Origin: a virus
Virus record (IMG/VR): IMGVR_UViG_2757320370_000007
Location: 9,719-73,718 of that record
Direction: 5' to 3' (one strand)
Length of the DNA: 64,000 nt
Made by a program: the position numbers and the translations under genes. Positions within the stretch are counted from its first letter, which is position 1, and the number at the start of each line of letters is the position of its first letter. Positions 14,182-45,809 of the stretch are shown here, piece after piece. The notes under the pieces are model-generated. The model was not told the origin of the DNA, did not search any database, and worked only from the letters and a program-made list of their open reading frames with translations.

Positions 14182-14210
14182 ATTATATGTTTACTTTATA
14201 AGTCTGTCAA
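14182..14210 (-). promoter_or_regulatory. Consensus sigma-A promoter with operator motif in the spacer
   Basis: TTGACA-gacttataaagtaaaca-TATAAT; faces the nrd cluster. Confidence 0.85.
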
Positions 14211-14730: not shown

Positions 14731-14986
14731 TATTAATCATCCTTTTTATTTTATTTATGTTCTGATCAAAGATACATTTTATTTACTTCACATTTTCCCA
14801 GTTCTAAAACGTCTTTCCATCATTTTTTTGATTCCATCACTATCTTCTAGTGTTTTCTTCACTTCTTCATTTGTCGACATAGTATCAATTAGGTCATTAA
14901 AGAATTCTAATTCTACTCCCTTAAAAATCTTGCCAGCCTTTGTTCGTAATTCGCTTTTTTTCATTATTGTCTCCTTCATACTCTTA

Positions 14987-15046
14987 ATAAAATTTGACTT
15001 TCGTGTGCTTTTCAGTGTTAGAAATCCCTTATAAAACAAGGTTTTT
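14987..15046. repeat. Composite site: 18-bp palindrome + 17 bp + AAATCCCTT-N7-AAGGTTTTT
   Basis: Same fixed spacing at 20541-20599, 27930-27989 and 31629-31688. Confidence 0.75.
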
Positions 15047-15455
15047 TATTTCAATAGGTTCGCAATCTCATCGAGTTCAAGTTCAACTTTTTTATCATCG
15101 GAGAGTAACTTATCAAGTTTTGATTCCATTGCCTTTAGCTTCTGTTCTTCGTCTTTTCTATTCAGAATTTCAAATTTCAATTTCAAGTCTGTAATCCAAT
15201 CCTGGACATGATAGCCGCTAACATTATATGATTCCAGCACTCCTAAATCTTTAGCAGACAGTACATAAGCGTTTAACTTAATAAGAAGGTTAAGAATTTG
15301 TTCTTTCTGTAGTACTTGAATATTATGTCGTACTCCATCAATTTCAATTGAGCAGTTAGTAATTGGTGTAAACTTTTGAGACTTACTTAGTTTCTCTTTC
15401 TTAACTTCAATTTGTTTCTTCAGTTCAAGAATCTTTTGATCATTTGGGTTTGCCA

Positions 15456-16586
15456 TTATTCTTCATCTCCACTCTGAAATAGTTTTCCATTTACAAGATA
15501 TTGATCTCTGTATCTAGGTTTGTATTGCTCCCACAAATCTTCAAGCGATCCGCTGAATATAGTCACATTTTCCATAGAATATCCACCGTAATTCCATTTT
15601 GAAGTTACTTTTTTTCTAATTCTTAAGTTAAAAGAATTATTATCTTTTGCATCACCAATCACTTCAGCAGCACTATCTATATCATTTCCGATATAAATAC
15701 TTGTGCTGTAATGCCATGCATAATTTCCAATTTTAGTCCTGATCTTTTCACAGAATCTATCTTTCGTGTAATAGACGAATTCATCTTTTGACTCATCTTG
15801 TGGAGAATAATATGATTTGTGCTCAAGTAAGTCGAACATATAAGCATATCGTTCAGTACATTCCTCAGACAAACAGCCTATAACTCTATCGCCTAATGAT
15901 TTAAGTTGAATAGCATACAAGTCCGGTTTTTTACGATAATTTGTGGTCTCACTAGCAAAGATATAATGTTTGCCTTTGTTAACCACTTTGTATCTACTTT
16001 CTTCTCCCTGTTCCCCTCGAATCCACTTTCTATCCCAATAATCAAACCTCCCCATGTACACCAGTTCTTGATTATCTTTTGTTTTATATGTAGCTCCAAT
16101 AATCAATTCTTTTGACTTAATATACTCTTTGTTGTGCAGAATCTTATTGAATGAACTTATTTCTTGATAGTCTGGAGATTCTACAGGTATCAGCACTAAC
16201 TCCTTCCCTTCCCAAGCATATACAAATTCTCCTTCTAGTCCCTTCCCTTTGATTGAGTTAGCATTTTCTAGGATGTAAAGTAAATTCTCAATAGTAATTT
16301 CAAACTCAAATCCTCTTGGGTCATATACTCTCACGTATGCCTGTCGATGATTCCAGTCAGACACATAGTCTCCAACCTTCTTATTCAACACAAAGCCTGA
16401 TGTTGGTTCATTCTCATAGTCTACCGGATCGATATTATTGTCTCTCCAGCTTTCCCAGGAAGCTTTCTTTCTCAATACTCCTTTGTGATCTTCATAAATT
16501 ACGTAAGCCAATTTCTTGGTATATGTATTATCGCGATTCTGAAATCCAACTTTAATTTTAGTTGGAATGAATATATTTGTTTTCAA
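15456..16586 (-). CDS. Hypothetical phage protein (376 aa)
   Basis: Long ORF translationally coupled to its neighbours. Confidence 0.7.
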   Translation of the reverse strand: MKTNIFIPTKIKVGFQNRDNTYTKKLAYVIYEDHKGVLRKKASWESWRDNNIDPVDYENEPTSGFVLNKKVGDYVSDWNHRQAYVRVYDPRGFEFEITIENLLYILENANSIKGKGLEGEFVYAWEGKELVLIPVESPDYQEISSFNKILHNKEYIKSKELIIGATYKTKDNQELVYMGRFDYWDRKWIRGEQGEESRYKVVNKGKHYIFASETTNYRKKPDLYAIQLKSLGDRVIGCLSEECTERYAYMFDLLEHKSYYSPQDESKDEFVYYTKDRFCEKIRTKIGNYAWHYSTSIYIGNDIDSAAEVIGDAKDNNSFNLRIRKKVTSKWNYGGYSMENVTIFSGSLEDLWEQYKPRYRDQYLVNGKLFQSGDEE

Positions 16587-18601
16587 TTTAGCACTCCTTT
16601 TAAGGATTCCATTTCATTTTGAATCTCAGCAATCTTCTTGTCATAATATTTCATTTTGGATTCTTTGGCAGATTCAAAATCTATAATTATTGTTTTACAT
16701 TGTTTCTTATAATGCTTTACACATTCTTTTTCATCGTAGAAGATATTGAGTGATGTTCCAGTTAGTGATCGATATCCAGTGTTATCATATGGAGCAATCA
16801 CTTGTGCTAACGGTTTGCCATTCTTCCCAAATGGCCTAAAGTGAAATTCCGAATAATATACAGTTTTATTACTTGGCAATTCTTCATTGCTTACGACCAT
16901 AACTTTGGTGGGCTTAACATGACGGATTGGTTGATTATCAATATCGTTAAATCGATAATCGCATATCCAGACTTCTTCTCCAATCTTGACTACTTTGTTA
17001 TACTCAGTGTGATTCAATTATAAGCCCTCCCAATTATTTATTCCTAACTTCTATTGATTTCTTCAATAGCCACACCACTTAGCCTCATAATATCCAACAA
17101 CATATTTGGTATGTTTTCTCTTACACATTCCCATCCATACAGAGTAACACCATAATATGCACCTTCTACTTCAGCATCTTCATCAAACATATCTCCTCGA
17201 AGTCGAATCATTCTTTCTTTAAAATTTTCTTGTCCAATGCAATTGTATTCTTTATCGTAAACATCATATATTTCATCGTCTTCTTCTTTGTATTTATATG
17301 ATGTAATTATCTTACCTTCATTTCCAGCTACTGGATCAGATTTTAGCCATTCATACACTTCTTCATCTGATTTAGCTTGCAGATAGGTTACTATTCCGGC
17401 TTTACTGTCTTTTGGAGCAAAATGCTCAAACATAATTTTATATAGATTCATTTTTAATACGCCCTTCCTTCATATTAACGATCTTAATTATTTCATTATA
17501 TTTATTGCTATCAAAATGAATACTGTTCCTAATAAATGAGCCATATTCTTTTTGGTTATATAATTCCTTAAGTTCTTTAGTACACTTTTTAAAGTTTGAA
17601 AGCCCTGCAAACAACACTAGAACTGGGAAAAGAATAGTTGTTAGAGCAATGGCAATATTATTTGTGAAGCTGTGAAGAATAACCCCTTGATCACTATAAT
17701 AATATTCATATTTATCATTCCACTTGATTTGACGATATTTGAATAATGAATTATGCTGCTCCTTTGTTAATTGGAATTTTATGTACCCATATTCGGTTGG
17801 ACATTTATATTTATAGTTAGACACTTAGTACCTCCATTTATGTCTTGCTTTCTGTTCCTCTTGTCCCAATCTTTTAAAATGGCATTCCAACATTCATCTG
17901 ATCCCTTTAATAATAGATAGTCTGGAATTTTGTACGTATCTTGTACCCCATATTGACCAAGTTCAATAATATAATGTCCATTTGTTATCTCCCCCTCCAC
18001 CCATTTTGCATATTCAATGTTTTTCTCTTTATGCGACAGCTTAGTCCATTGATCATATAACTCTTGTGCGGTGTCAATATAGTTCAATCTTAGTTTTGAG
18101 TACATAACTTTGATCCTCCTTATTATAAAATACGCCTTTTACCGACTTCCTCGTTGATCTACAAGCTCTTTAATTAGCAAATCATGCAACTCTCTACTAA
18201 TACTCTTCCATTCCATGTCTTTATCTGTTCTAATGCCAATGCTAAACGAGTCTGTTACTGTATCTGTACAAATTCTTACCGATCCATTATTTACTTTAAG
18301 AATCGTCGTCCCTCTTTGTCCTGATAGCACACTACCCCACTCCTTTCCTTCTCTATGAAATCTCTCTTTTACGCAAACTCTAAATAATTTATTGCCTCAA
18401 TAACATCTATGTTCATCTAAGCACCAACCTCATGTTGAATCGACTCAATATCTGAAATCAGTTTCGTTGTTTCTTCGATATATTCTGGATACTCATTTTT
18501 AAGATAATCTACAGCAATCCATTCGCTCAAATCAAACCTTGCTTTTTCAAGCAGATTTAGTATTTCTTTCATCTGATCAACTATACCCATCAATCATTCT
18601 C

Positions 18602-18870
18602 CTAAGCCCAATATTCAACTGCATCTTCAAAATCAATCCAGAATGTTTCATTCATCTCCGTATCAGTCTCAACATCATAAAATTGAATCAACATTTCATT
18701 CCGATGATCTTCTTTAACGACAAAGCCTTCAGGGTGCAATTTCCAGCCGTTAGGAAAGGGTGCTCCCACCTATTGAGTTTCTGAAATACCTCATTTTCCG
18801 TTGAGGCAAGCCTACAAACAAATCCAGTGTAATCTTTTGTATCATTGTATCCTTCAATTCTTTCAGCCAT
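18602..18870 (-). pseudogene. Frameshifted hypothetical gene
   Basis: MAERIEG..KLNR continues as VGAPFPNGWKLHPEG..EYWA* in another frame near 18770. Confidence 0.5.
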
Positions 18871-19708
18871 TAATACTCATCATCTCCCGACTCTTCGATT
18901 TCATCAATTTTTGTTCTCAACAATTCAATGTCATCATCTAATTCCGCAACATTTGCCATCAATAGATTTATTTGAAGTTGTAACCTTGTTCTCGTTTCGA
19001 TTTTGGAGCCTAATTCATCAATCAATAAGTCATAATCATTCATGCCGCCCATTCCTTTCAGTATCAAATATATCTTTCATCAGTATTAATACCTTATCAC
19101 AGGTCTATCTTTCCAATCTCTTTTCCTATCAAGAACATATTTACCTCTATACTTGTCAGACAACTTAAGATTTTTCTGGGCTTCAAGCATGTCAATTTTT
19201 TCTGAAATGTCTCTGCGTTGTTTATATAGCTTATCTAGTTGTTCATATATCTGTTCCAATGTTGGATTTAGGTTGATCATTTCATACACCCTTTATATAT
19301 TATTGTTTGATTGCTTCTAGCAAACAATCAAGCGCTTCAGCAATATATCCATCCTCTTTATATTCAACGCTTAGTTGTTGATACACACCTTCAATCTGAT
19401 TATAAGCTCGATACAAAATATCTTTTTGCTCCTTGTTAATGTTCTTGGTTTTGATCACTGTTCATTCCTCCTTTTATTTGAGATAAAAGCATTATTTCAT
19501 TAGTCACACGACTAATCTATAAATTCATAATGCCCATGCTGGACGACATCAGGACCATCAGCCCAAACTTGGATACCTATAAATGAGTATATATTTTCAT
19601 CTCTTACGAGGAATTGTTCCCCAACTTCGTACCAATTGTAATCTTCTCTTTTAATCACTCTAATATTTTTCATTTTATATTTTCCTTTCTTATACATTAT
19701 TAATCTGA

Positions 19709-20047
19709 TTATAACTTTATATTTGACCCTTTCTCACATTCTTTAAGATATGCTTCAGCCCAACAACTTTTACAGAATGATTTTCCTTCTAGTGATTCTG
19801 GAAAAGGAAACACCATGCCTCTTTTATATATATTTCTTGTTTTTGTTCCACATTTATCGCATTCATGATAAACAATCTTATCTGCACTGTAACTAGGTTC
19901 AAATTCAACAGTCACTTCAAACTCTTCGTCACATTTCTGACATTCCCAATCCAACTTATTGTCGTCTGATAAACCATCAGTTAAGGCATGAGACATGTCA
20001 TTTTCGTATCCACAATAGGGGCAATCCACTGTATCGTAAATATTCAA
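19709..20047 (-). CDS. Double zinc-finger small protein
   Basis: Four CxxC motifs. Confidence 0.6.
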   Translation of the reverse strand: MNIYDTVDCPYCGYENDMSHALTDGLSDDNKLDWECQKCDEEFEVTVEFEPSYSADKIVYHECDKCGTKTRNIYKRGMVFPFPESLEGKSFCKSCWAEAYLKECEKGSNIKL

Positions 20048-20540
20048 TTCCTCCTTTCTAAATCAAACTTGTATTCTATCAGGTTTTTATTTTGCTAATG
20101 CAGCAAGTTCTTCCCATCGTTTTCTCACATTTGGACTAGTCATTCCATCATCATTTTCTAGTTTCTCTTTCGCTACTTTCCCCACCTCAGGTTTCCAATC
20201 TTCTATCCATTCACGCACCTGATTAATTAAATCATACTGGGGATAAAGAAGTTTGCTGCCATCAACGATTCCAAAAGGTCCTTCAATTCCTTTTGTTTTT
20301 CTTATAAATTCCATCCCAGACCAACCGCATTGAAATCCAGTCATACCTTGCTTTGAAGCAAAATAATTGAACATTGCAACCGTTACATTGGCAAGTGATT
20401 CAGCAATTGTATTGTAGTCATGACTTTGATTTTCTTGCTCATGTAAATAACTAATTAATTCTTCTTCCGTTGTAGGCCAAGCACCATACTTTCCATCTTT
20501 CAAATAAATCATCCTTTTTTATATGTATTTTTAGTTACTG

Positions 20541-20599
20541 ATGAAACAGTTCTTTTACGATGGAATGTACCTCTTAAAGCCCAATAGAATCAATGCTTT
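20541..20599. repeat. Composite site (18-bp palindrome + 17 bp + degenerate second palindrome)
   Basis: ATGAAA-cagttc-TTTTAC then AAAGCCCAA-TAGAATC-AATGCTTT. Confidence 0.6.
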
Positions 20600-21274
20600 C
20601 TCAAATCAAATTCCCTCAAAGTATCGGCAATCTCATCACTTGAAGCAAAACTCGGCTTTTTGTGATTAACCTTACCACTCAACCTTTTAATGTATTCTAC
20701 ATCTCTGTCTGATCCAACTTCTGGACCAACGTAAATTGTTTTGTCTTTCATATTTCCACCCACTCAACCTAATATGTATAACAGCCCTTGCGATACTGTT
20801 TTCCTTTGTACTTATATTTAGCAATAAAAGTTTTTACGAGTACTGTTCCGTTGGCAATCTTTTCTAAAACCAATGTTCCATACTTTGTCATCCAACGAAT
20901 CTTGCCCGTAAAGTTTAAACCGGAAACCTCTCTTGCGAGAGATCTCCAATTAACTCCACTTTCGATGCAGCGTTGTAAAGAGTGCTTACTAAACTTAATT
21001 TGTGAGGTATTCATAAGTTTCACCGTTTCTTAGCAGCTTTCAAATCTCGTTGCTTTTTATTTTTGGTGAGAGGGCTGCCTCCCTTTGCCATAGATTTGTC
21101 AGGTAGAATATAACCGAAAATCAATCCTTCTTTTTTACAATGTACTTTGGCTTCATTCTCGGCTCCGAGTCGATCTGTAGATACAAAGTCCTTGATTACC
21201 TTACTAGTTCCACTTTGAGTTGTTGCGATTCCGTAGAATTTAGTCATATGTATTTGATCTCCCTTGGTCTCTTT

Positions 21275-21319
21275 ATTATAGTTTATATTATTTATTTTGT
21301 ATATATGTTTATTTTATAA
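21275..21319 (-). promoter_or_regulatory. Promoter with operator variant
   Basis: TATACA-17-TATAAT preceded by TTATAAAATAAACATAT. Confidence 0.65.
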
Positions 21320-21322
21320 ATA

Positions 21323-22982
21323 TTAAATCTTTTCTCTGTAATCCTCAATAAATAACTGCATTGTCTTTGTGATTTTAAACTTTGGCTTATATTGCTTCCA
21401 ATAATTCATATTCAGTGTTCCAATCGCTTCAATCTCAGTGAATACTGGAACGCTGTCGAAGTACTCTGAATCAGTCTTAAACTTCATAAGTTGCAGAGTA
21501 TCACAGTCAATTTTAACGGTGTTGAGGGACTTGCCCATTAGTTTCTTGTCTGAGATGAATAATCCCTTAATGAGAAATTTGCCCTCTTTAAAATGATTTC
21601 CTGTGACACGATAGAACTCAGACAGGTAATTAATTAGTTTTTCATCAATCTGGTCAACATCAAATTCTAAATCATAATACATGGAATTGTCTGCTTCAAA
21701 ATTATCTAACTTCTCATTCAGCTCTTGACGCAATAATTCGAGATTTGTTTTGTAGATCTGTAGTCCTCCTGCTGCGGGATGGCCTCCAGTGTAAAATACA
21801 TTGTCACAGCTATCAAGTAAATCTAACATTGAGAAATCTTCTAGTCCCCGAAAACTTCCTGCGTATGTATCTTCATTGTCACCTTCGCCAAGTACGATTG
21901 CTGGCCTATTAAATGATTTGGACAATTTCTGTCCCACTAATCCATTCATCCCTTTACCAAGCGTTGGATCAAATACAATTACGACTTTATCATTCTCGTC
22001 GACAAATGGCTTCAACGCTCTTAACGCTTCTGTCTGGACTTCCTTGCGTCTTTCATTTGCCTTGACAAGTTCTTTTGCTAGTCCTTTAATCTCAGGACTA
22101 TCCGTATCGCACATCAAAAAGTCAATTGCTAACTTAATATTATCAAATCTTGTAGCAGCCGTTACAGCAGGGCTTACACCGTACAGAAAATCAGTTGCAG
22201 ATAGATTATTGAGGTCAAAATTCATAGCCTCAAATAACGTTCTAAGTCCTGCATGACGTAGGCTTTTAAGAGACAGCTTGGCATAATATCTGTTTTCTAG
22301 TTCCATCATCGACATCATATCAGCCATTAGTGAGAATCCTGGCAAGTCATCGAGTTTATTTGCATAGTATGTATCCATGTAATCGTCTATTACTTGGCAA
22401 ACTTTAAAAACCAAGAGTCCACCACAAGCATTTTTATTGGGATACTCGCAACCATTTTGCTGCGGATTCACCAAAATCGCATATGGATTTTCAACAGTGA
22501 CACTGTGGTGATCAATAATTAAACAGTCAATCCCTTTAGATGTTAGCAATTTCATAGTCTCTACATCATTTGATGAGCTGTCTACTGCAATCAAAAGTTT
22601 AGTTTGTTTGGGTATCTGCTCAATCAATCCCTCAATTGAATGACCTTCAGATCTTTCATTACAGACATAATATACTTCGTCAGTGAAATTCAATAAATAC
22701 TTATACATAGTCACTAACGAAGTTACTCCATCGTAATCCTAACTAATCGGGGTCGCCAGTAATCGTAATAGGCTCACGGTTGCGAATAGCCAGAATGATT
22801 CGGCTTGCCAATGCATCAATATTTTTAAGTAAATATGAATCACAAATCACATTAGAGAGTGGATTCAGAAATTGATCAATATTAGTGATTCCATTTAGTT
22901 TTGCAAGTTTAGAATATGTATTATCATATGAATCAAACGGTGTAACAGGTTTGCGTTGCTTCCATTTCAATGGTTCGATCAC
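21323..22982 (-). CDS. recJ: RecJ-like DHH ssDNA exonuclease split by a 10-nt gap (22736-22745)
   Basis: GDPD*/DYDGVTS motif I, AVD, IIDHH, ADMM, GSFR, GGHPAAGG; about 549 aa if the gap is skipped. Confidence 0.85.
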
Positions 22983-24689
22983 TCCTTAATACAAATTTTA
23001 TCTAATTGTTATTTTGAATTTTTCAGGCATTGTAATATTGTGGTAGTTGTTCATTGCAGCCATGAATTTATACGTAAGCTTCTTGCTTTCGCGTCCAGTG
23101 AATTTGTCGATGATTCTGATATTTACCTTTCTGTTCATATCTATCACTCTCCAGATCAAATATTTAATTACTTAGTACCTATACTTCACTCTTATTGTAA
23201 ATTCAGCGTTTTTCATTCGCTCAATCTGACTAATGGCGTCAGTAATTTTTTCTTTTATCTTTTTTGATCTACTAAAAAAATAGATTAATTTATATTTTCT
23301 AATCCTCTTTTGTAATAATGACTCAGAAGACCAAATATCAATTTCACTCATTGTTTACCACCTCCATGATTTGATCAAAGATAAGTTTTACTTAATTATC
23401 TATATTGGACGACCTTCCACATCTTCCGCACTCTTCGCATTGACTAAGCGATTCTTCGTCCAGACATTGAGAACAAGCGTGTTTAAACCATTCTTCATCT
23501 CCCGGTCTAACAAGGAAATCATCTCCGCACTTAGCACAATATAATTTTTCAAACATCTTATGTTTATCTCCTCTCTACGTCCAATCAGGATTTAAATAAT
23601 GAGCCAGTTCACTCACATATTTATCGTTTATGTATTCCGGTGTCAATCCTTCCATCAAACTTACTACGACTTCATATAGTGCGGTTTTGTAATCTGAATT
23701 ATCAGCAAAATAAATTGCGCTTATTGCAGCATTTAGTGCTTCTCTAGCACTACCACTTAGATCATTGTCGATGAAGTTTTTCATTAACTCATCCATTAGC
23801 TTCCCATTCTTTCATTGGCTTCATCGATTATTTCGTCAAAAATGCTCTGAAGATTTTTGGCTTGCTGATTCCATGAACGAATACCTTCTGGAGTAATTTC
23901 AATATCGCTATTCTGAAAGGTGGATGATAGATGTTGGATATCAATTTGAAACGCTCTAAACCTGTTGAAGAAATTCTGATCTGTATTGATTTTTGCCATT
24001 TCATTTTTCCCCCTTAAAATTTGATCAAAGTATGTTTTCATCGCCTATTCTTGGATGGCATCGCAGAACACTTTCCATTCTGTCTTCTTATTTCTTTGAA
24101 CCTTTTTGATCCCCTTGTAATTTTGGCAAGCTCTTACTCCTCCAGGGAATTCACTAGAATAGATACAAGTACATTCCTCTCTCTTTTCTCCTTTGTTTTT
24201 ACCAAACAACGATTCCACTTCTCTGCTACCATATTCTCTTTGAACTGGACACTCTGATTTCAATACATGAACCTCTTCAGTTCCACCACCAATTGCACAG
24301 CAGCTTGAGAAAATTTCTTTCTTCATTATTTCACCTCATCATTTGTTTAGAGCTTTAGTATTCGTCATTGTATTTAACAAATTCATCTTCAGCACCTTCA
24401 AATGCTCTCTCGTATACACTGTCAAGCATTGTCACGATAAAATTGTCACCTGATTCAGTGTCTGCCTCATCGAGCAGATTTTCAATTAACCACTTAGCAA
24501 ACTCTTTCCGTTTACCACGTCGAATTTTTGCTTCGTTCCAATTATTTGGGCTTGCATTAAAACCTCTTACAAGATTGCTGATAGGCATCTCAATAATTAC
24601 TTTTTCATTTGTTGATCTTACTGTAAAACCTGTAATGTTCTTATCTTCAATTTTCATTAATGAACTCACCCTTCTTCTGGGATATATAT

Positions 24690-25016
24690 TTACATTTTTT
24701 TGTTTCCATGTTTATACGGTCTGCTTAGGTTGTACTTCATTTTTTCCTCGATTGCTGATTCTAAATCAATCTTATAATAGCCACAAGCATCAAAAATCCT
24801 AATAATTACATCAGCAAACTCGATGGGAATGCCACAAGGTTTTTCATCTACATAAAATACATTATCGTATTCTTTACCATTTCGATGATCCTCAATTGCT
24901 TCAGAAAGCTCACTGTGCATAAGTGAAATTAGTTCACCAAAACTCTTAGGATTTTCCCACCAGCCATGATCAATAGCATTCTGATGAGCATCACTCACCA
25001 AATTATTAATATTCAT
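24690..25016 (-). CDS. MazG-like nucleotide pyrophosphohydrolase
   Basis: HSELSEAIE..EFADVIIR..KMKYN..RPYKHG. Confidence 0.8.
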   Translation of the reverse strand: MNINNLVSDAHQNAIDHGWWENPKSFGELISLMHSELSEAIEDHRNGKEYDNVFYVDEKPCGIPIEFADVIIRIFDACGYYKIDLESAIEEKMKYNLSRPYKHGNKKM

Positions 25017-27049
25017 TCCATCAACTCTTTCATATGTATTTTCAACTCATGAAACTATTCTTTCATCAACACTCTCTACTAACCAACATAATTAGCAAAC
25101 TCATTGCCTCTATCGCAAAACTCTTTAACCATCACCCTCACCAATCCAAATGACATACCTGAGTGACCTTGGCGCTCAATTTCTTTTTTTGCATCTTCGA
25201 GGCTACCATCTTCATTTAAAATTCTGACAATGTCCAAGCAGCATCCCAATTCCATGCCATGGTATAGATCGTTAAGTCTAACAGGGACAATCTTATCCCA
25301 ATAATCCCATTTATCTTGGTCTAGCACTTGTCTACCTCTTACTTTCCACTCTCCAATAAGAGAAGGGATACTTTCTTTGAATTCAGCTTCTCTCTTCTCA
25401 GAATCCTCTCTCCATTTTCGTTGCGATTCGTCAAATTCATCTTTCGTCTTACCGATGATTTCTTTATATGCTCCGTCCATCGTAACAGTGTCTGAATATA
25501 GGGTGGTTCCATTAAATTCACCACATGCTAAGATGCCTTTATCCTTATATTCTAATAATTTGTGAACAGCACTCTCAATTGTGTTTTCCCAAGAAAATTC
25601 GATCTTCAAATATTGATTTTCCAAAATATTGTCCTCCTCAAGTAGTTAGTTATGGATCGAATTGCTATTTAATCTGCAAACTTAAAACAGGAATGGTTCC
25701 CCTAACAGACAGCTCAATTTCTCCCGTTTCAAATGCCTGGAGATACTTATCAATCTGCTCTTGATCATCAAATTTGTAGTCAAACCCAATCCATCCAAAA
25801 ATCATGTTGTCTACACCGCAATGAAACTTTCCTCCAACCATTTGATTGTACCGTATGCCACCCCAAGGCTTCTTTTCACACACTGAGTACCGCAGTTTAC
25901 CAAAATTGTTGCGGATCATCACGAAGTAGTTATCCGATACACCCATTACTCGCATCGGCTTCTTCCAATCGTTAACCCTAATGAGATTACCGATACTTAC
26001 AGTATCCAGAATTTCTTTTGTTATGTTCTCATGTATCAAGCTCATCAACTCCTTTCACGTTATTTAGAATCTCTACATTACGCATTTTTTTATTTTTCTA
26101 ACTTTTTTACAAGCCTTTTTAGTTGAAACTCTTTGACAAACGTTTTGATTTTTTCATATAGAAGTCTGATTTTCAAGCATTGTGTTTTTAGTTTTTCGTA
26201 GTAAAGTCTCAACATAATAGCAACCCTCACTCCTATGTGCAGTACACGTCTACTTGTAACCCCATAAAACTTTTATTTCACTTTGAACTGACTTTAATTC
26301 TAATTGTTCCTTTTTCGTAATCTGAGTCAGTATGAACCTTATACTTTTCATTCGTTTGTGTGTGTTTTATAATCTCTTTCCAAATCGCTTCATCAAGCTC
26401 TTCAATGAATTTTTCTTTACTCACAATAATCCCCCCCTTCCTTATGAAATTCTAATTTGACTAAGTCTTATAGATTTAAACTGACCTTCCATTGTCTACT
26501 CGTGTTAAAGTTTCAATCAAAAGCAAACGCTCGTCTTCATCAATTTCTCTTGATACAAAAGTAATCCCATTATCGTCTACCAGTTCAACGTAAACACCAT
26601 CTTTTGCATTTCCATAAAAATCAACTCTGCGATTGTCTCCCATTGGTATTTGCATATTCAGCCACCTCTTCCATTCTCCCTTAATGTGTATTTCGGAGCC
26701 AACTCTCACTGACTCCGCGTTATCAGTCCTTATTATAATTTTGTTTATGTATTTATATGTTTACTTGTAAAAGGCTGTGTCGATAACTCCCCATCCACTA
26801 AACTCAATACCGTCTTCATCCATAATGTATATGTCACCGTTCGAAAAAATATCGTTTCCATACCTTCGACCAATCTCATATAGTTCACCTTCGTTGAAAT
26901 TACATCCTCTTAGCTTCTTATATTGATTAGACACTATCAATATGTGAGTGGCACCATCCATATCCTCCGTTTCAGAAAGTTTCTTTCCTTCTTTCGATAT
27001 TGCACATGCTTTAGACAATACGATCATTCCCTTCTCATGTCCTGTTCTT

Positions 27050-27103
27050 ATTATATTCTCTTAGTTATTAATTTGCAACTAATATTTATATGTTTACTTT
27101 ATA
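27050..27103 (-). promoter_or_regulatory. Promoter with upstream operator
   Basis: TTGCAA-17-TATAAT with TTATAAAGTAAACATAT just upstream. Confidence 0.65.
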
Positions 27104-27154
27104 AATTTAGTTTGTGAGATATTTATTAATGATAATATCTTGGTCAAAAAACCC

Positions 27155-27481
27155 TTATTTATTCAAGGTTTTTTCTTTCTCTAAAATATCAATTGCGGCC
27201 ATAATTATAGCAAATGGCATTGTCTCTTGTACTTCAACTTTTGATTCCTTATTGTTTTTACAATTCCAGAAGTTTGCCAAATACCAGACTCTACCCGACA
27301 TCTCAATTCGAGGCCACCAATCACGACTAATCATCTCATCCACAACAAGTCTCATTCCTTCCCAAGTTGATGAATATTGTGGAATGTGACCAAATGAACC
27401 ATCTATATTAAGACAAGTTGTGAGCGATATGTAGTTAATTAAATTGGCAAATTTTCCGTCTAACTCTTTTCCTGGTTCCAT
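27155..27481 (-). CDS. Phage ABA-sandwich domain protein
   Basis: ELD..PQYSSTWEGMRLVVDEM..MPFAIIMAA pattern. Confidence 0.6.
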   Translation of the reverse strand: MEPGKELDGKFANLINYISLTTCLNIDGSFGHIPQYSSTWEGMRLVVDEMISRDWWPRIEMSGRVWYLANFWNCKNNKESKVEVQETMPFAIIMAAIDILEKEKTLNK

Positions 27482-27929
27482 AATCTATGCCTCCTTTTTT
27501 CTTGAGAACAACGTCTTAAAAGAAAACTCTTCATCATAATTTAGACATCTGTCATCGCTTCCTGGATCATATCTACAACGCAATGTAGCAGTCAATGTTC
27601 CATTGTTGTTTCTGCAACCCTTACAGGCGAAAGATTCCAGTATTTTTATTTCAGCCAGATTCAATAAATCTAGTCCGACTTCTTTTATCTTCATATATTC
27701 ACTTAAGTTGACAAGGCGCTTCTGTAAACTTTCCCCTTCGATAATATTGAATCTGTGGTATCTTGTTGGTTCATGACAGACAATAATTTCTTTATTATCA
27801 ATGTGTTTTTGTAATTCTTCAATGCTGTCAACTTGATAAATGACATATGTATCTTGTGTCCTGCCACCAAATGCATGTTCTCCATAAGCATTAATGATTA
27901 TCATTATTTCACTCCCTTTTAATGTTTTG

Positions 27930-27989
27930 ATAAAACCTATATTTTACAATGTTTTTAGTTCTAAAAAACCCTTATAAATCAACGTTTTC
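27930..27989. repeat. Composite site (18-bp palindrome + 17 bp + AAAACCCTT-N7-AACGTTTT)
   Basis: Fixed spacing as at 14987. Confidence 0.75.
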
Positions 27990-28172
27990 TCGATCTCGTT
28001 TTGATAATTCATCCATCATTTCGTCCAAGATCTCATCTGTGAGTCCATTCCTGGATTTCCAGTCGTCAAAAAATAACTTAAGAGTGGGATGTGATAAGTC
28101 CCACCATGAAAGATTGTTAAATGCATCAAGTTGCTCCTCGGTATATCTCTTATTTTCCATTACATACCCTCA

Positions 28173-29249
28173 CTAATTATGTATTTTGAATTTGTACTCG
28201 CTATATAGCCTCTTAAACACCACTTCCCCTAAATCAGTAGGACTATCTTTATTGCTAAACATTCCATCCCTATCCCAAAGAGCATATACATTTCTGGTCT
28301 TACCAAACTTAGCCCCCTGCTTTTTTACAGCTTCAATTGATTTATCTTTATCTAAAGCTATAATTATATCGATCTCAATTCCAAGACCTTTAATCATACT
28401 AACTTGCCAGTCACTTAAATCATCCCCACTTATAGCTACACAATTCCGAAAACCATATTGACTACTCAGCCATGTACTCTTTTCACCTTCGTATATCAGC
28501 ACCTCCTTATTCTCAATAATATAAAATAAAGCACGATGCCAATTATACAATTCAACCATCTTGTTAAAGTTAATAAGATAGAGGAACTTATAAATATCTC
28601 GTTCCTCGTAATCATCAAAAATTGTTCTACCTTTGATAGACACAATATCCCCGTAACTATTGTGAATAGGATAAATGATTCTTTGACTTTTAATATCGTA
28701 TCCAACTTGGAATTCTATTTGTGTCAAATAATTAATACCTTCGTTAATGTATAGTAAATGTGGAACCATGATGAATTGACTCAAAATATCATCGCCATAT
28801 ATTTGATTCTCTATGTGGTCAAGATTCCGTTTCTTTTTTCTCTGTTTTTTGACCTCTCTAAGCCATTTAAGATGATCTGATGTGGGCAATGGGGTATACG
28901 ATTCATTTAAGAACTCTGTATACCCCAGTTTTTCACATATCCACCGCTTAGACTTAGGTAAATTGCTTCGTCTTTCTTCTTCAAGAAATTTATCAAATAC
29001 TATGTATGAGACCAATCCATATATATCAATATCTGATTCTCCAAGCGTTCTGATTCTGCTAGACATGCTCTCATTTAGGTAGACCTGAACAGACCTTTTA
29101 TTTGGAGACTCAAACTTATTGGGAAGTTGTGCCTCGTAGCGATTATTTTTCTTCTCTACATGTTCACAATCCATCAGTTCAAGTAATTCTCCAACTTTTT
29201 CATCTGTTAATATTTTCTCTTTGATCAACTTTAAATCATTATTGCTCAT
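28173..29249 (-). CDS. DNA primase (TOPRIM), SPbeta YorJ-like
   Basis: RIIYPIHN..SIKGR, IYEGEKS, ALDKD, KDSPTD; downstream of the helicase. Confidence 0.85.
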   Translation of the reverse strand: MSNNDLKLIKEKILTDEKVGELLELMDCEHVEKKNNRYEAQLPNKFESPNKRSVQVYLNESMSSRIRTLGESDIDIYGLVSYIVFDKFLEEERRSNLPKSKRWICEKLGYTEFLNESYTPLPTSDHLKWLREVKKQRKKKRNLDHIENQIYGDDILSQFIMVPHLLYINEGINYLTQIEFQVGYDIKSQRIIYPIHNSYGDIVSIKGRTIFDDYEERDIYKFLYLINFNKMVELYNWHRALFYIIENKEVLIYEGEKSTWLSSQYGFRNCVAISGDDLSDWQVSMIKGLGIEIDIIIALDKDKSIEAVKKQGAKFGKTRNVYALWDRDGMFSNKDSPTDLGEVVFKRLYSEYKFKIHN

Positions 29250-29284
29250 TTAAGCTCCCCCATAGGAGTATTTACTGCTATGTA

Positions 29285-30790
29285 TTAAAACATCGAATTA
29301 GATTTCTTGCCCATTTGTGCGTATGCGACTTCTTTGAAACTGTTGATACTGTAGTCCACTTCATAAATAATTTGCTCTGATAGATCTCCAGAACGATTCT
29401 TAGAGATGAAGATTATCATATAAGTTTTTTCTGGATCTAATTCGTATTTTTCTTTCTCCCACACCCCATTGAGAGCATTCTTGACCCAGTTATATGCAGC
29501 GAGAGCTTCTTTTTTCCCTGGCATCTCATCTGCAAAAAGTAATCTTCCCATAAGTATCACGGATGCAACCTCAGCAATCTCTAGGGACTTCCCTATGGCA
29601 CTCAGATCAAGATAGCGATACTCTTTACCAATCTTCAACTGAACCGTTGCAAGCAGTCCCACGTTGTTTGCTTCGGGTTTAATGCAGTCAAAAATATTTT
29701 GAGCCGCATTGCTAAATGATTCCCACCTAGCGGATTCTTGAGCAGAGGCGCTAGGTTTAAAAGTATCAAGCAAGGCATAATTGTAATTTAATGGTTTCAT
29801 CATTGTAATGCGGCTAATAACATCCTCGACTCTATACTTCTTTAAATCATAAAACTTGATATGATTTTTCGGAAATTTTTGAATCCATTTTTTCGCTGCA
29901 TCTAATTTATCAAGTGTTTTTTGTTCAAAACTTCCCTCAATCAACTTCTCACGATTAATCGGCTTATGTAAAATTTTAGATGAAACTGTTGCCAAAACAA
30001 GGTTTCTTGTTTTCCAGATATTCTCTTCATTTACGAACATCATTCCTTTTTGTTCGTTTTCGTAGAGCGATAGCACGAATTTTTCCATACTTATAGATGA
30101 CTTTCCAACTCCAGAACTCAAAATAAGATACATAAGTTCGCCTTTGCGCCATCCCTTAATCTTCTTACTCAGTCTTGGCGAATCGTGCAATGGAATCCCC
30201 ATTGCTTCACCTTGATTCATTTTGTCTATTGCAATATCAAGGTCATCTCCAAGGTCATATTCAACAACTTCTCCGCAGTTAATGTGAGAAAATATTGAAC
30301 TAGTCTTAAACTGAAAAAATGATTGCATTTGTTTCAGAGTCATTCTTGTTAATTTTCCAATTAAGTCTTTGTTTGTTGTATCAATTAAGCTTTCGCTTTG
30401 AAATTTTCTCAAACTTTCATACTTTTGTATTTCTGAAAAATGGTAATCATCATTACCTTTGTCTTTCTCGCACTCTTCTAATAACTCATCTATCAAATTA
30501 TAACCACCATATTCATTGTAACAATCGAAATATGACTTTCGATTTACTTCTTTGGGTCGTGAAGTTAAAAACGAATATACTGTCTTATCATCAAACTTTC
30601 TAATACTATTCGCATACATCTCATTCCCTATGAAGTAGAAATACCACCAAATAGGTTCAGTGAATGTATCCTCTGATATCTCATGATTCCTATATTTTTC
30701 ATATAGTGACGGCGTACTCCAGAGATAGCCAATAAATAGAGACTCGTGTATTTTTGATGGTGCTACAAATTCATCTATGTAATTAATAAT
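29285..30790 (-). CDS. DnaB-like replicative helicase, probable ATT start
   Basis: Walker A SSGVGKS, LLDTFK, ATVQL, SKNRSG; frame open for 57 codons upstream of ATG 30619 to an ATT after AGGGGG. Confidence 0.85.
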   Translation of the reverse strand: MINYIDEFVAPSKIHESLFIGYLWSTPSLYEKYRNHEISEDTFTEPIWWYFYFIGNEMYANSIRKFDDKTVYSFLTSRPKEVNRKSYFDCYNEYGGYNLIDELLEECEKDKGNDDYHFSEIQKYESLRKFQSESLIDTTNKDLIGKLTRMTLKQMQSFFQFKTSSIFSHINCGEVVEYDLGDDLDIAIDKMNQGEAMGIPLHDSPRLSKKIKGWRKGELMYLILSSGVGKSSISMEKFVLSLYENEQKGMMFVNEENIWKTRNLVLATVSSKILHKPINREKLIEGSFEQKTLDKLDAAKKWIQKFPKNHIKFYDLKKYRVEDVISRITMMKPLNYNYALLDTFKPSASAQESARWESFSNAAQNIFDCIKPEANNVGLLATVQLKIGKEYRYLDLSAIGKSLEIAEVASVILMGRLLFADEMPGKKEALAAYNWVKNALNGVWEKEKYELDPEKTYMIIFISKNRSGDLSEQIIYEVDYSINSFKEVAYAQMGKKSNSMF

Positions 30791-30800
30791 TTAATGCCCC

Positions 30801-31370
30801 CTATAGAAAACTTGATATATCCATCTCATCTATCTTATTATGTTTATTCTTTAAAATTTCATTGGATATATTCTTATCTTCACTACTAATTTTAGTTCTC
30901 TCAAACTGTTCAGTATGCTGCTCACGTCTCTTCTTTCTCGCAAAAGCCTCATTCAACTTATCGATCATGATAGAAACTCCATAATTGATTGCTCTCGTAT
31001 CTCTAGAACCATCCAGTTTGTTGGCAATGCACCATCGAATACTATCTTCTGCCAGCAAATAAGCCTCCAACATCAGTTCAAACGTTGGCCCCGTATTCCA
31101 CTTTCTAACTCTCTGCCCATCCTTAAATTCGAACCCAGCTCTTAAATCCTTCAACCGTGTAATATTTCCCGTTGGTAAAACTATGATATCGTGTAGTTTG
31201 ATTATGTATTGGTATAGATCATCCCATTGTTGATTCTCGATTCGAGTCGCTTCCTTGTCACGTTTCCATCGTTCGTGACAATATTCAACATGGTAATATC
31301 GTTTGTCTTCTTGGATCATATTTTCTTTGTGTTCACGCTGACTACAAATAGGACATTTTACTAGTGCCAA
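30801..31370 (-). CDS. Zn-binding replication-associated protein (YorH-like position)
   Basis: N-terminal CPIC..YYH..CH; immediately upstream of the helicase. Confidence 0.55.
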   Translation of the reverse strand: MALVKCPICSQREHKENMIQEDKRYYHVEYCHERWKRDKEATRIENQQWDDLYQYIIKLHDIIVLPTGNITRLKDLRAGFEFKDGQRVRKWNTGPTFELMLEAYLLAEDSIRWCIANKLDGSRDTRAINYGVSIMIDKLNEAFARKKRREQHTEQFERTKISSEDKNISNEILKNKHNKIDEMDISSFL

Positions 31371-31628
31371 ATTCTCACCTCCTTAAGATTTGATATTATG
31401 TATCACACTTCAAAGCACTCATAACCCAAGCCGTTTAAATATTGAAATTGTTCGGCAACAACTTTTCCATCCTCGTCTCTGAGACCAACAACGCTGTCAT
31501 AATTAAGATCAATATAGATACCGTGTTCGTCTGACAGTTTGTCTAATTCTTTTATAAATTTTGAAATCCTATTTAAATCCATTAAAATTCCTCCAATTTT
31601 ATATTTATACTTCAATTTTGACGACACG

Positions 31629-31688
31629 ATGAAATACCTCTTTCGTGAGGAAATATGGTCTAAAAAAGCCTTATTCTATAAGGGTTTT
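31629..31688. repeat. Composite site (18-bp palindrome + 17 bp + AAAAGCCTT-N7-AAGGGTTTT)
   Basis: Fixed spacing as at 14987. Confidence 0.75.
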
Positions 31689-32170
31689 TAACTATGTATT
31701 TTTAAAATCCTCAATAATACTCTTCTTTGTTCTTTTTGAACTCAACTCCTAGAAATTCGCATACTTCCTTCTTAAAATTATTATCAGAATAATCATCTTC
31801 GCCAAATTCACCATTTACGAGTCGATGTTCCAGTTCTTCCAACATGACCTCTTCTGGACTCCATTGGTCTTCTAATCCGTAGCAAGAGCAATGTGACCCA
31901 TTTACTTCATATAGTTTCCCATCTTTTAAGAATAGAACCCAAGCAGCACCAGAATAATTGTCGTTTCCATACGAGGCAAATAGTACGGCTTCCTCTTTGT
32001 GATTGCTTAGTGCATGATCTTGTGTTTCCCATGACTCAAAACTACCAAACACTTCTTCCATATTGCTCCAATCATGTAGGAATATTGGTTGTTGATTGAT
32101 AATTTCTTCGAATGTTTTCATTTGATTTCTCCTCTTATTATGTATTTTTACTTTTACATTGAACCTATTG

Positions 32171-32531: not shown

Positions 32532-34418
32532 TTTCGCCCATCTCCTTTAGTATCGTTTTATATTCCTATGTATTAATAAAAATCAACAACATGCAATTCA
32601 TAATCTCCGAATATGTTAGCCTCGATATCTTGTAATTGGTGAGTGTATTTATTTCCCAAGACAACAATATCTTCTGTAATAAAAGGAATGTTCGCGTTGC
32701 TATCCGTTTCATATACTGTCAACCCCACAAGATGCGAAGCAATGAAGCTTTTTCCTCTGTTTGAACTACCCTTGAACACCCAAACTGGTCTCTTTTCTTT
32801 ATGTCTGATTGTCTGAGTAAATAAATCCATATTAACGGTATAGTCGCCACACGGATAGTAACTATCTCCACCATCATACGAAACCTCGAAAACTTTATTA
32901 TTGATATATTCACTGTTGTAAGACTCTGGTAAAATGTCATCGATGTATATTTGCTCTTTAGTTGTGTATGTATAGCCTTCAAATTTTTCAATTTCTTCTA
33001 CTTCAACCTTTCCCCACGAAGCGGAGCACCATCCAGAACCACATTCCCCTTGCTCTTCCCATAAAGTGATTTTAACTTTTCTTTTATCTTCTAGGATTCC
33101 AAATAATACATGTCTTTCAAATTCTGTATCAACATATTCAAAATCACAATTATGTCCCGATACGGACTCTCCAATATACTTTTCAATTCTCAATCCAACA
33201 ATCTTCATATAAATCCCCTTCAATAATATGTATTTTTATTTTATATTTCTAAATAAAATGAGGGTTTTAAACGGTTTCATTCTTCACACAATCTTACCTT
33301 ATGTTTCTGAATCGTCTCTTCGTCCAAATACCATAGAACTGAACCGTGTTCACTTCCAAAATACAGTCCAAATTTATCTTGCATACTTTTGCCAACAAAA
33401 GCGTATTTAGATCCACAACCGTTCAATCTCACCTTATTAGATGTCTCCAGGTGATTCCCTTCAACATCATAAATACCTGTTGGTAATCCTATTGGTATCC
33501 ACTTATCAGATATGTAACATCCATGACCTACGTCCATTAAATCCCTCCTTTACGTAACTTCATAACCAACAATCAGACATCTAGCAAAGTCCAATGGCTG
33601 CAATTCATTAAGGATCTTAAATTCGTCTTTGTAATTTGTACTCATGCAAATACCATTACCAGAAAATCCTTTGCAATGAGATATTAAGTTGAATTGCTTA
33701 TTCCAATTGTCTATTGGCATTTTATCTAGTGCATCTGCAATTTCCTTAGACACTTTTACTTTGTACAACGATACTCTCCTCCTTATTCAATTTCTGCCCC
33801 ATGCTCAACAGCAAGTCTCTAAAATGATTAAAATCTCCATAGTTTGAATATCCACTTGAATATGTATAAGTTCTTGGCTTAGTTAGATTATGTCTTTGAT
33901 ATTCTATGTATCTCTTAGCTTCATCTAGAATAAAGAAGAATGCAACTGGTTCATAATCATCCTTAATCCATGTAGCAGCATACCACTCAATACCATACAC
34001 TTTAAAATAATCATCATAGTTCATAACAAATATTTCATCATCATTTGCTTCAAATGTCTCATACTCCATCTCTCTATAGGGCTTGATTTCAAATGGTGGA
34101 TTCTCTTCTCTTCGTTCAAACCATTCTTGAACCAATTCTTCTTCAGAATCATACCAATGCTCATAGTCATAATCCGTTGTAAATTTCAGAGGTAACCCAT
34201 CATAATATTCAACTTGATCTTGATGATATGGAATATATTCTGGTCGATATGTTTGTACTGCGTGAATAGCATTACTGGTGCATACATTATCCTTTGCCCC
34301 TGGATATTGCTTTTCAGCAAACAGTTTTAAAAACTGTTCTTGGGGATCTGTTAGCTCAATTTCAATATTTTTCATATTTTCTCCTTTCTTGATAAAACAG
34401 AACTTTTACAAACTCACT

Positions 34419-45754: not shown

Positions 45755-45758
45755 ACCA

Positions 45759-45809
45759 AATCCATATGAAAGAATAGGAATTACTCGCCTCTTTTCTTTC
45801 TTATGGATT
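45759..45809. terminator. Hairpin between convergent genes
   Basis: AATCCATATGAAAGAA...TTCTTTCTTATGGATT imperfect inverted repeat. Confidence 0.6.

Follow-up and report, generated by a model that had tools for sequence, protein, structure and literature searches.

A conserved hairpin and junction-palindrome cassette of large SPbeta-like prophages that most likely punctuates transcription

The 64,000-nt stretch of viral DNA analysed here (the window; IMG/VR record IMGVR_UViG_2757320370_000007) is part of an SPbeta-like prophage of at least 170 kb, with a GC content of 34% against 49.7% in the host, and all of its genes lie on the minus strand. They include a replication block (31582-27972, minus strand) that consists of a 59-aa ORF, a 189-aa ORF, a DnaB-like helicase, a DnaG-like primase and a 62-aa ORF; the helicase is 77% identical to its counterpart in a relative, G061. 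Gene junctions in the window carry about 38 copies of a palindrome (the core) with the consensus RTVAAA-N6-TTTBAY, placed after the stop codon of one gene and ahead of the next ribosome-binding site. A PWM scan gives 54 copies in 96 kb, whereas the genome as a whole averages 0.28 per 50 kb, and the phage carries 40-70 of these palindromes, mostly inside transcription units; SPbeta scanned with the same PWM has at most 0.04 sites per kb. A core is found within 80 nt of 40 of the 196 gene starts, and 30 of 40 cores end 11-23 nt ahead of the start codon, thus leaving no room for a promoter there. At the variable core positions 5 and 18, complementary pairs are not in excess (23 observed, 18.6 expected), and G-G and C-C combinations are common. 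The half-sites thus vary independently, and the core is best read as the probable double-stranded site of a dimeric DNA-binding protein. Its centre, the N6 address, is site-specific and is kept between phages.

About 10% of the cores carry a second palindrome, which on the gene strand reads AAAA-CCCTT, a 7-nt loop and AAGGG-T4-6. Searching for AAANCCCTT-N7-AAGGNTTT with up to two mismatches returned eight matches at four loci (15022, 27148, 27965 and 31664), where shuffled sequence predicts 0.27. At every site the stop codon of the upstream ORF is found within this hairpin or 0-22 nt ahead of it, and a tract of T4-T6 directly follows the stem at 27928, 31627, 27148, -2501 and 146126, being weaker at 14985 and 20539. 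A-tract, C-rich 5' arm, 7-nt loop and T-tract are all conserved among 33 distinct copies; the 3' arm appears better kept than the 5' arm, a difference to be read with the bias that all searches were anchored on the 3' arm. Judged from its letters, the second palindrome has the shape and the position of an intrinsic terminator. The stems hold two to three G-C pairs plus A-T pairs, and their fold energies range from -3.1 to -9.9 kcal/mol compared with -4.4 ± 2.8 for random 45-mers. A consensus terminator scan called none of the hairpins, and from 14 to 33 kb the gene strand has no strong terminator candidate (at or below -10 kcal/mol).

The individual sites, all on the minus strand, illustrate this anatomy. 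A hairpin at 15022-15045 (AAAACCTTGTTTTATAAGGGATTT; -7.2 kcal/mol over 45 nt) abuts the TAA stop codon of ORF 15046-15456 and precedes the core at 14985-15006 (ACACGAAAGTCAAATTTTATTA; PWM 17 bits), with the start codon of the next gene (14964) 20 nt further downstream; the address of this core, GTCAAA, occurs with a hairpin at equal spacing in at least four IMG/VR proviruses. The core at 20539-20560 (TCGTAAAAGAACTGTTTCATCA; PWM 21.5 bits) is followed by AAATACATAT and then by the ribosome-binding site of gene 20503-20087, and its G061 ortholog (32911) has the identical N6, GAACTG. Its hairpin at 20576-20599 (AAAGCATTGATTCTATTGGGCTTT; -3.1 kcal/mol) holds the TGA stop codon of ORF 20590-20751. 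The original prediction assigned one palindrome form to all four of its sites, and three do fit; this one (AAAGCCCAATAGAATCAATGCTTT) is a diverged copy that fails the pattern at up to two mismatches, with a better preserved ortholog in the relative.

The two remaining composites flank the replication block. They had been placed within about 0.3 kb of it and indeed lie 185-318 bp from the block ends. At one end, a hairpin at 27965-27988 (AAAACGTTGATTTATAAGGGTTTT, then T6; -6.3 kcal/mol) has the TAA stop codon of ORF 27972-28160 in its loop and 3' arm, and the core at 27928-27949 (TTGTAAAATATAGGTTTTATCA) stands 23 nt ahead of the start codon of gene 27904-27485; here only a 43-bp island is conserved between the prophage and G061 (86% identity), and the flanks are non-homologous. 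Upstream of the block, a hairpin at 31664-31688 (AAAACCCTTATAGAATAAGGCTTTT, then T6; -5.9 kcal/mol) lies 22 nt past the TAG stop codon of ORF 31711-32121 and is followed by the core at 31627-31648 (TCACGAAAGAGGTATTTCATCG). In G061 the core with this N6 is preceded by a duplicated ATGTAGTATATA promoter-like stretch and has no hairpin, and 30 of the 32 nt that make up the 31664 hairpin's 3' arm, the spacer and the left core arm recur at a different G061 locus. A fifth hairpin (27148-27173; AAAAACCTTGAATAAATAAGGGTTTTTT; -8.5 kcal/mol), earlier described as lying beside a decayed core, is a real copy directly past ORF 27155-27481. At the expected offset (27111-27132) stands TCATTAATAAATATCTCACAAA, which scores -34 bits, so the core there has decayed; downstream of this remnant is a sigma-A-like promoter, TTGCAA-17-TATAAT (27050-27078; 10/12 matches).

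The arrangement of the two parts is highly ordered. The 17-bp gap first noted at four sites is read at 15005-15021, 20559-20575, 27948-27964 and 31647-31663. An offset test of the motif WWGGS.TTY against the core found one single offset six times in the prophage (window positions -2501, 14985, 20539, 27928, 31627 and +146126) and five times in G061; no other offset within ±150 occurred more than once, with about 0.03 expected per offset. The hairpin is upstream of the core in 11 of 11 cases, and the mirror arrangement, with the hairpin downstream, is absent from the prophage and G061. IMG/VR loci at spacings of 21, 22, 23 and 24 (that is, -1, 0, +1 and +2) number 5, 33, 57 and 7, and represent 4, 16, 8 and 5 distinct N6 addresses, respectively. 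The +1 spacing belongs to a whole family and is due in part to the length of the T-tract, which at one orthologous site is 5 versus 6 T; -1 and +2 are single cases. The fixed two-part architecture that had been proposed is thus real, polar and kept by relatives according to the offset test and the IMG/VR scans; the spacing, described as invariant, is mostly identical in relatives but sometimes longer by one, and is better called near-fixed. The composite is a conserved intergenic cassette of a family of large SPbeta-like prophages, and the sequences show its anatomy, polarity, near-fixed spacing and conservation in relatives.

Such regularity could come from descent and not from selection. On that account, to which we give a minor though appreciable chance, a repeat of about 65 bp made of a terminator and a palindrome that do not cooperate has been spread by cassette shuffling and kept uniform by gene conversion, as a mobile regulatory cassette like those of T4-type phages. 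The spacers indeed resemble one another more than shuffled spacers do (4.7 identities in 13 nt versus 3.7 ± 0.28), the copies at -2501 and 27928 are 82% identical over 64 bp, and the G061 site 31897 is a patchwork of prophage 27928 (5' arm, core and downstream sequence) and prophage 31627 (3' arm and spacer). Copies therefore exchange short patches, and the uniform spacer length could be partly inherited. The module also occurs in phages that share only NrdD/NrdG, at about 30% identity, with the prophage; cores form conserved islands amid non-homologous genes, and spacing variants of -1, +1 and +2 exist. On the other hand, orthologous sites retain the 19-nt spacer though as many as roughly half of its variable positions differ, as at the addresses GTCAAA and ATCCTG, where spacer length is kept and spacer sequence has diverged. 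Furthermore, the off-spacing background is 5-7 loci against 33 and 57 at the two favoured spacings, and strict polarity together with placement at ORF ends speaks for use, not descent alone.

If the cassette is used, its layout in the direction of transcription suggests for what. A hairpin closes the upstream ORF, a 13-nt spacer follows the T-tract, and the core is then separated by 10-45 nt from a ribosome-binding site and start codon. This order of stop codon, hairpin, core and ribosome-binding site also fits terminator-promoter cassettes such as the promoter-early stem-loops (PeSLs) of the T4-type phages RB49 and phi1 (Arbiol et al. 2010, PMC2839356). PeSLs, too, are small repeats found in a plastic early region, each after the stop codon of a small gene and ahead of the following Shine-Dalgarno sequence; their stem-loop is read as a terminator or attenuator, they border variable genes and also flank those for replication, and genes are reshuffled when copies recombine. 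However, in PeSLs there is a strong sigma-70 consensus promoter, and the stems are G/C-rich, stable and variable in position, whereas the cassette has no sigma-A promoter, a weak hairpin and a near-fixed distance to a palindrome with a site-specific centre. The hairpin might still end the upstream unit while the palindrome is, or overlaps, a promoter at which a phage-modified or phage-encoded polymerase restarts transcription; we think this improbable. In its favour, the sigma-A promoter scan found no -35/-10 pair between hairpin and ribosome-binding site at 14985, 20539 or 27928, so that the genes behind the hairpins at 14985 and 27928 are without a sigma-A promoter of their own, and cores 11-23 nt ahead of start codons would give plausible short leaders. 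Nevertheless, known promoters are not true palindromes with independent half-sites, as the core is, and the logo of the 33 distinct copies has no -35 or -10 signal. In the sigma-A -10 element the A at -11 and the T at -7 are the most critical bases, and each is present in fewer than half of the cores (positions 5 and 9). Finally, with the queries used, neither a sigma-70 region 2 gene nor a YonO-like polymerase was found in the prophage, the only YonO-like gene being 770 kb away.

The original prediction likened the composite to res or attI, and this analogy is not supported. In its general form it holds that the second palindrome binds an accessory protein that helps or directs site-specific recombination at the core, in the manner of res, attI or the lambda att arms, and that composites are favoured entry points for new gene cassettes; we judge this unlikely. 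It has some attractions: the core resembles a tyrosine-recombinase core site in geometry (inverted 6-8-bp arms around a 6-bp centre), with a site-specific centre that is kept between phages; gene content changes at cores; and the prophage encodes a recombinase-fold MrpR-family protein and one PF00589 protein. In addition, the hairpin stems have no compensatory changes (71.6% of cells paired, no better than shuffled or slid controls), which makes a DNA-level role for the second palindrome possible. Multi-part sites with fixed internal spacing are also typical of res, attI and attC, and attC sites are likewise imperfect palindromes at cassette ends. The res subsites, though, all consist of half-sites of the recombinase whose gene they adjoin, and attI lies beside intI and has a GTTRRRY core. 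In our composites, by contrast, hairpin and core have no half-site in common (AAGGGTTTT versus ATVAAA), GTTRRRY is absent as judged from the two consensus sequences, and neither a resolvase gene nor an intI-type tyrosine recombinase adjoins the core array. Indeed, no recombinase gene was found near any composite site: the prophage has a single resolvase-type (PF00239) match, at G000 4198418-4198852 and about 165 kb away from the window start, and a single integrase-like (PF00589) match, at G000 4135463-4135933 and about 102 kb away from it. The two palindrome centres are 38 bp, or about 3.6 helical turns, apart and so would face different sides of the helix. Among relatives, a core of a given address may gain or lose the hairpin (as at GTGGCA, ATATAGG and GAGGTA). 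The second palindrome has terminator anatomy, and in the host's other low-GC islands genes are followed by coreless hairpins of the same family. All five hairpin-ending genes are missing from G061, as are about 70% of genes region-wide, and phage-unique genes adjoin composites no more often than this background. The MrpR of SPbeta, moreover, is reported to have lost recombinase function (PMC10516654).

We thus favour transcription as the process served: the module most likely punctuates transcription rather than guides recombination, and on balance we lean towards a composite of a terminator-type hairpin and a protein-binding junction palindrome. Against this stands the lack of compensatory change in the stems, which leaves room for a DNA-level role of the second palindrome. 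The cassette would punctuate transcription of the early-gene array. How it might do so is suggested by its dimensions. The last T of the T-tract is about 16 nt from the first conserved palindrome base, roughly one downstream polymerase footprint, so that a protein on the palindrome could stop RNA polymerase coming from upstream with the active site of the halted enzyme on the U-tract of the hairpin. The stall distance is reportedly 14 nt in E. coli work with EcoRI Q111, and the Bacillales polymerase may differ. The hairpin alone would be too weak for good termination; termination would be efficient only with the protein bound, as in the lysogen, and leaky after its loss, and this leakiness would explain how promoterless genes behind the hairpin could be expressed. 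Such a conditional terminator, with an operator one polymerase footprint past a weak hairpin and U-tract, is a tentative proposal.

Roadblock-mediated termination, in which a DNA-bound protein halts polymerase and causes its release, is known to delimit transcription units (reviewed in PMC10310618). Known cases use Mfd or canonical termination pathways, whereas the cassette would pair the roadblock with a weak intrinsic terminator. To our knowledge, a weak intrinsic terminator one polymerase footprint ahead of a roadblock is not a standard design. A further parallel is offered by the stoperators of Cluster A mycobacteriophages (for instance L5 and TipsytheTRex), which are thought to stop elongation in the lysogen (PMC9283540). 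Like the cores, at which binding is putative, they are dozens of sites in short intergenic spaces of a temperate phage, but each stoperator is an asymmetric site of 13 bp that a monomer binds and that is oriented with transcription, whereas the core is a palindrome and only the order of hairpin and core is polar. We know of no description of stoperators coupled at a fixed distance to a hairpin and U-tract.

A candidate for the core-binding protein is the MrpR-family repressor encoded 5 kb beyond the window (G000 4102356-4103306), which is 31% identical to YopR and matches Pfam MrpR_N_CB (9e-26), MrpR_C_cat (2e-15) and PDB entry 8a0a. One G061 core directly follows a -10-like stretch, an operator-like position. 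In SPbeta the master repressor MrpR/YopR binds the repeated element SPBRE (Kohm et al. 2023, PMC10516654), for which we derived a 15-bp motif from ten published targets. SPBRE and core belong to the same phage lineage, in which both phages encode an MrpR-family protein, and are intergenic inverted repeats around a 6-7-bp centre that head early units, among them those on either side of the replication genes (yorE and yorM in SPbeta; PMC10516654). The SPBRE sequence is nevertheless ATACAAATAATATGTAT inside TAGACA-17-TATAAT, unrelated to RTVAAA-N6-TTTBAY, and this difference in sequence and the location inside sigma-A promoters count against an MrpR-type protein at the core. There are also only about ten SPBRE copies, within sigma-A promoters and with terminators at variable distances, in contrast to 40-70 cores of which a subset is hairpin-locked.

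A large temperate phage has to silence more than 100 early genes in the lysogen and later switch them on fast. In the proposed mechanism, terminators that leak by themselves would be made into tight insulators by a repressor during lysogeny, and once it was removed the whole early-gene array would be open to read-through. If this is true, a repressor and a weak terminator at a fixed distance would form one device, a simple way to insulate transcription units, and we know of no description of such a device. The cassette could then be reused as a switchable terminator, and the conditional-terminator design would be common to dozens of large SPbeta-like phages. The cassette would remain useful as a marker were its spacing no more than inherited: terminator, spacer and one half of the junction palindrome move and recombine as one piece, which bears on how mosaic phages swap genes.

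The original prediction placed a second palindrome exactly 17 bp from four of the 18-bp gene-junction palindromes (the cores, at 14985, 20539, 27928 and 31627 in their extended 22-bp form), and this exact distance is seen on the plus strand at all 4 sites, with the second palindromes lying at 15022, 20576, 27965 and 31664. The form proposed for the second palindrome, with at most 2 mismatches allowed, is found at 15022, 27148, 27965 and 31664 (8 matches against 0.27 expected) but not at 20576, where the copy has diverged; the fifth copy, at 27148, is genuine and the core there has decayed. Beyond the window there are two further composites of hairpin plus core, at -2501 and +146126. When all occurrences of WWGGS.TTY within 150 nt of all cores are counted, one offset recurs six times and every other offset appears at most once, with approximately 0.03 expected per offset. 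The mirror order, with the hairpin downstream of the core, is absent from both this phage and the only close relative found, IMGVR_UViG_2617270876_000003 (G061), a provirus of 194 kb with a 77%-identical helicase, 71 cores and 5 composites at one common offset, identical to that of this prophage. At ordinary junctions, a stop triplet stands 0–8 nt before the core and the T-tract is absent; a composite is thus an ordinary junction with some 45 extra bases in front. The palindrome GGTAAAATTTACC has no copies in the loci examined, and in a scan of the collection the matches listed are all scattered and single.

The window occupies G000:C1:4033557-4097556 of an 8.5-Mb one-contig host genome, with a G+C content of about 34% versus 49.7% for the genome, and all of its sizeable ORFs lie on the minus strand. 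It encodes NrdD, a RecJ-like protein, a DnaG-like primase and a DnaB-like helicase, the last 59% identical to the helicases of the Spbetavirus phages Goe11, Goe12 and Goe14. A YopR/MrpR homolog is found at G000 4102356-4103306, 5 kb past the window end, and a large serine recombinase approximately 165 kb from the window start. Gene content, the helicase match and these two genes together place the window in an SPbeta-like prophage that spans at least 170 kb, as its early/replication arm. Close relatives are absent from 60 genomes of the same genus and order (a single match, 30% identical), a helicase search of genome contigs gave no close relative, and Megablast against the phage collection gave no match. 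Rfam likewise returned nothing at gathering score over the whole window and, at E values up to 1, a single chance-level match in 14.5–32.5 kb. The minus strand has a perfect match to the sigma-A consensus promoter, TTGACA-17-TATAAT, at 14182-14210, ahead of a 71-aa ORF (14151-13936); the 252-bp gap around it contains no core. For the 136-aa ORF that runs into the 31664 hairpin (31711-32121, minus strand), phrog_21421 is matched at E 6e-55 and Pfam gives no match; the PHROG family is labelled 'integrase' despite its 144-aa length, an annotation that seems doubtful.

The core itself was defined by a PWM grown from obvious copies, which converges on the 22-bp quasi-palindrome TGATVAAA-N6-TTTBATCA, with RTVAAA-N6-TTTBAY as its informative part. 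At 14 bits or more there are 54 cores in 96 kb, 37–39 of them within the window, and the motif is nearly missing from the remaining host genome, SPbeta and Goe12. Cores lie within 80 nt of 40 of the 196 gene starts, and in 30 of these 40 the core end and the start codon are separated by 11–23 nt; the core thus occupies the space from a stop codon to the next ribosome-binding site. The central six bases differ by site, yet they are identical at matching positions of the relative. At the variable positions 5 and 18, pairing is at chance level and G-G and C-C are frequent, which speaks for a pair of independent half-sites on double-stranded DNA and against an RNA stem. An RNA hairpin was rejected because these positions are mismatched in half of the copies, with no covariation. 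A motif, AAATACATAT, containing UACAUA, occurs 5–25 nt downstream of several cores, immediately ahead of the ribosome-binding site (20505-20535, 25010-25045, 54545-54580 and 33225-33250 in the window, and host position 4031000, window -2560); it resembles, on the opposite strand, the ATATGTAT half of SPBRE, the SPbeta repeated element. In the relative, two copies of ATGTAGTATATA, in place of a hairpin, precede the core ahead of the replication genes (L011:8060-8135, equal to G061 45755-45830); this stretch is SPBRE-like and -10-like, and it puts the core in an operator-like position just after a likely promoter.

The second palindrome, read on the gene strand, consists of AAAA-CCCTT, a 7-nt loop and AAGGG-T4-6. 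It begins immediately past the stop codon at 15046, includes the stop codon at 20590 and 27972, and comes 22 nt after it at 31711. The A-tract, C-rich 5' arm, loop length and T-tract are all conserved in 33 distinct copies, taken from this phage and related ones. T-tracts lie at 15016-15021, 27959-27964 and 31658-31663. The predicted folds are weak, at -3.1 to -9.9 kcal/mol versus -4.4 ± 2.8 in random 45-mers, and no hairpin passes a consensus terminator scan. In a pair count over 18 distinct copies, 71.6% of cells are paired without compensatory change, which is not above controls. Gene-strand terminator candidates with a hairpin and T-tract at -10 kcal/mol or below are present outside 14–33 kb and none lies inside. 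Other hairpins of this family (AAACCCTT..AAGGGTTTT) stand behind host ORFs without cores, at G000 2104841, 2161377, 2701392 and 6881773; local G+C is 43–50% at all four, two of them lie in 43–44% islands, and the 2.10-Mb copy is 69 bp behind an integrase gene. The 6.88-Mb copy shares even the loop TTGATTTATAAG and the TTTTTTAGAG after it. By eye, the hairpin loop fits an IHF-like site (WATCAANNNNTTR), a match made up mostly of A/T runs.

The composite was originally proposed to be a core-plus-accessory recombination site like res or attI, which we now consider improbable. First of all, the half-sites of the two palindromes are unrelated, and the hairpin accompanies only 10% of cores. Second, the hairpin has terminator anatomy. 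Third, there is no recombinase gene nearby, nor, as attI/attC would lead one to expect, an intI-type gene near the core array. Finally, the palindrome centres are 38 bp, or 3.6 turns, apart. Among known systems, the promoter-early stem-loops (PeSLs) of T4-type phages are nearest in layout (PMC2839356), SPBRE in lineage, and the stoperators, the repressor sites of Cluster A mycobacteriophages, in proposed action; the cassette differs from each of these, and from res, in one defining feature or more.

Relatives searched for the bipartite motif bear out the expected spacing, strongly though not absolutely. IMG/VR was scanned with TAAGGG.TTT-Nx-TVAAA-N6-TTTBAT at four spacings, counted from TAAGGG to the T of TVAAA, and spacing 22, that of this prophage, gave 33 loci with 16 distinct N6 centres, as against 5 loci (4 centres) at 21, 57 (8) at 23 and 7 (5) at 24. 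The spacing-22 matches come from numerous proviruses of 130–200 kb, several with dense core arrays. Those at spacing 23 belong mostly to a separate phage group with few other cores, which shares with this phage only a roughly 30%-identical NrdD/NrdG. At orthologous sites with centres GTCAAA and ATCCTG, the spacer keeps its 19-nt length while its sequence drifts; at one orthologous site the T-tracts differ in length by one T. Another composite type, in which TATATGTATTTTTA separates hairpin and core, occurs at +127741 (G000 4161297) and G061 160427, with a spacing one base shorter here than in G061, the sole off-by-one seen between these two phages. In a distant, 'type B' phage group (L030:678-760 and other IMG/VR loci), a composite directly follows nrdD-nrdG, and its core is followed by CACTATAGAA, which matches the 3' part of the SP6 promoter, perhaps by chance.

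It is possible, if rather unlikely, that the spacing is merely inherited within a shuffled, homogenised repeat. The replication genes of the two phages share 71–76% DNA identity, and at several junctions conservation is limited to the core (43 bp at 86% identity at 27928, for example). At cores GTGGCA, ATATAGG and GAGGTA, the hairpin is present in one phage and absent from the other at the same centre. At G061 site 31897, the 5' arm, core and downstream sequence correspond to window 27928, and the 3' arm and spacer to window 31627; copies thus exchange patches of about 25–30 nt. As to variable genes beside composites, all 5 genes that end in the hairpin are absent from the relative, yet so are about 70% of regional genes, so that this is uninformative and not significant. 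The relative also has an insert of about 850 bp between the helicase and primase genes (L011:11332-12189), which are 35 bp apart here (29240-29285); it may be a small gene, such as one for a homing endonuclease.

We turn to transcription. That the core is a phage-specific promoter behind a true terminator is improbable, since the core is symmetric and no phage polymerase or sigma factor was found: no gene with sigma-70 region 2 is present in the prophage, and four large prophage ORFs beyond the window gave no YonO-like polymerase in PHROG searches. The only YonO-like gene of the genome (G000 3262703-3264196) is 770 kb from this prophage, adjoins several integrase-like genes (PF00589 matches at 3224839, 3267041 and 3279422) and probably belongs to a second large prophage. 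No sigma-A promoter can be accommodated in the cassette. One with a TTGACN-like -35 in the T-tract/spacer and its -10 in the core is rejected, because a 17-bp spacer puts the -10 in the variable N6; the left and right core halves are 12–13 and 23 nt away, respectively. Sigma-H, ECF and sigma-54 promoters do not fit on inspection by eye.

On balance, we lean towards a terminator-type hairpin joined to a protein-binding junction palindrome and serving transcription. At sites 14985 and 27928, the next gene starts 20–23 nt past the core and has no promoter of its own; some read-through at the hairpin must therefore be possible. From the final T of the T-tract to the first conserved core base there are about 16 nt. 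A bacterial RNA polymerase in elongation extends over roughly 16 nt of DNA ahead of its active site, and at an EcoRI Q111 roadblock it stalls about 14 nt upstream. Since the T-tract-to-core distance approximates this forward footprint, a core-bound protein would arrest RNA polymerase at the U-tract that follows a weak hairpin, with the MrpR-family repressor as an obvious candidate binder. Published precedents exist for roadblock termination (PMC10310618) and for repressor sites that halt elongation at many intergenic places (PMC9283540), and the SPbeta relative of this repressor recognises another inverted repeat, similar in geometry and located in promoters (PMC10516654). This specific roadblock mechanism is put forward tentatively, as one way in which the composites may serve transcription.
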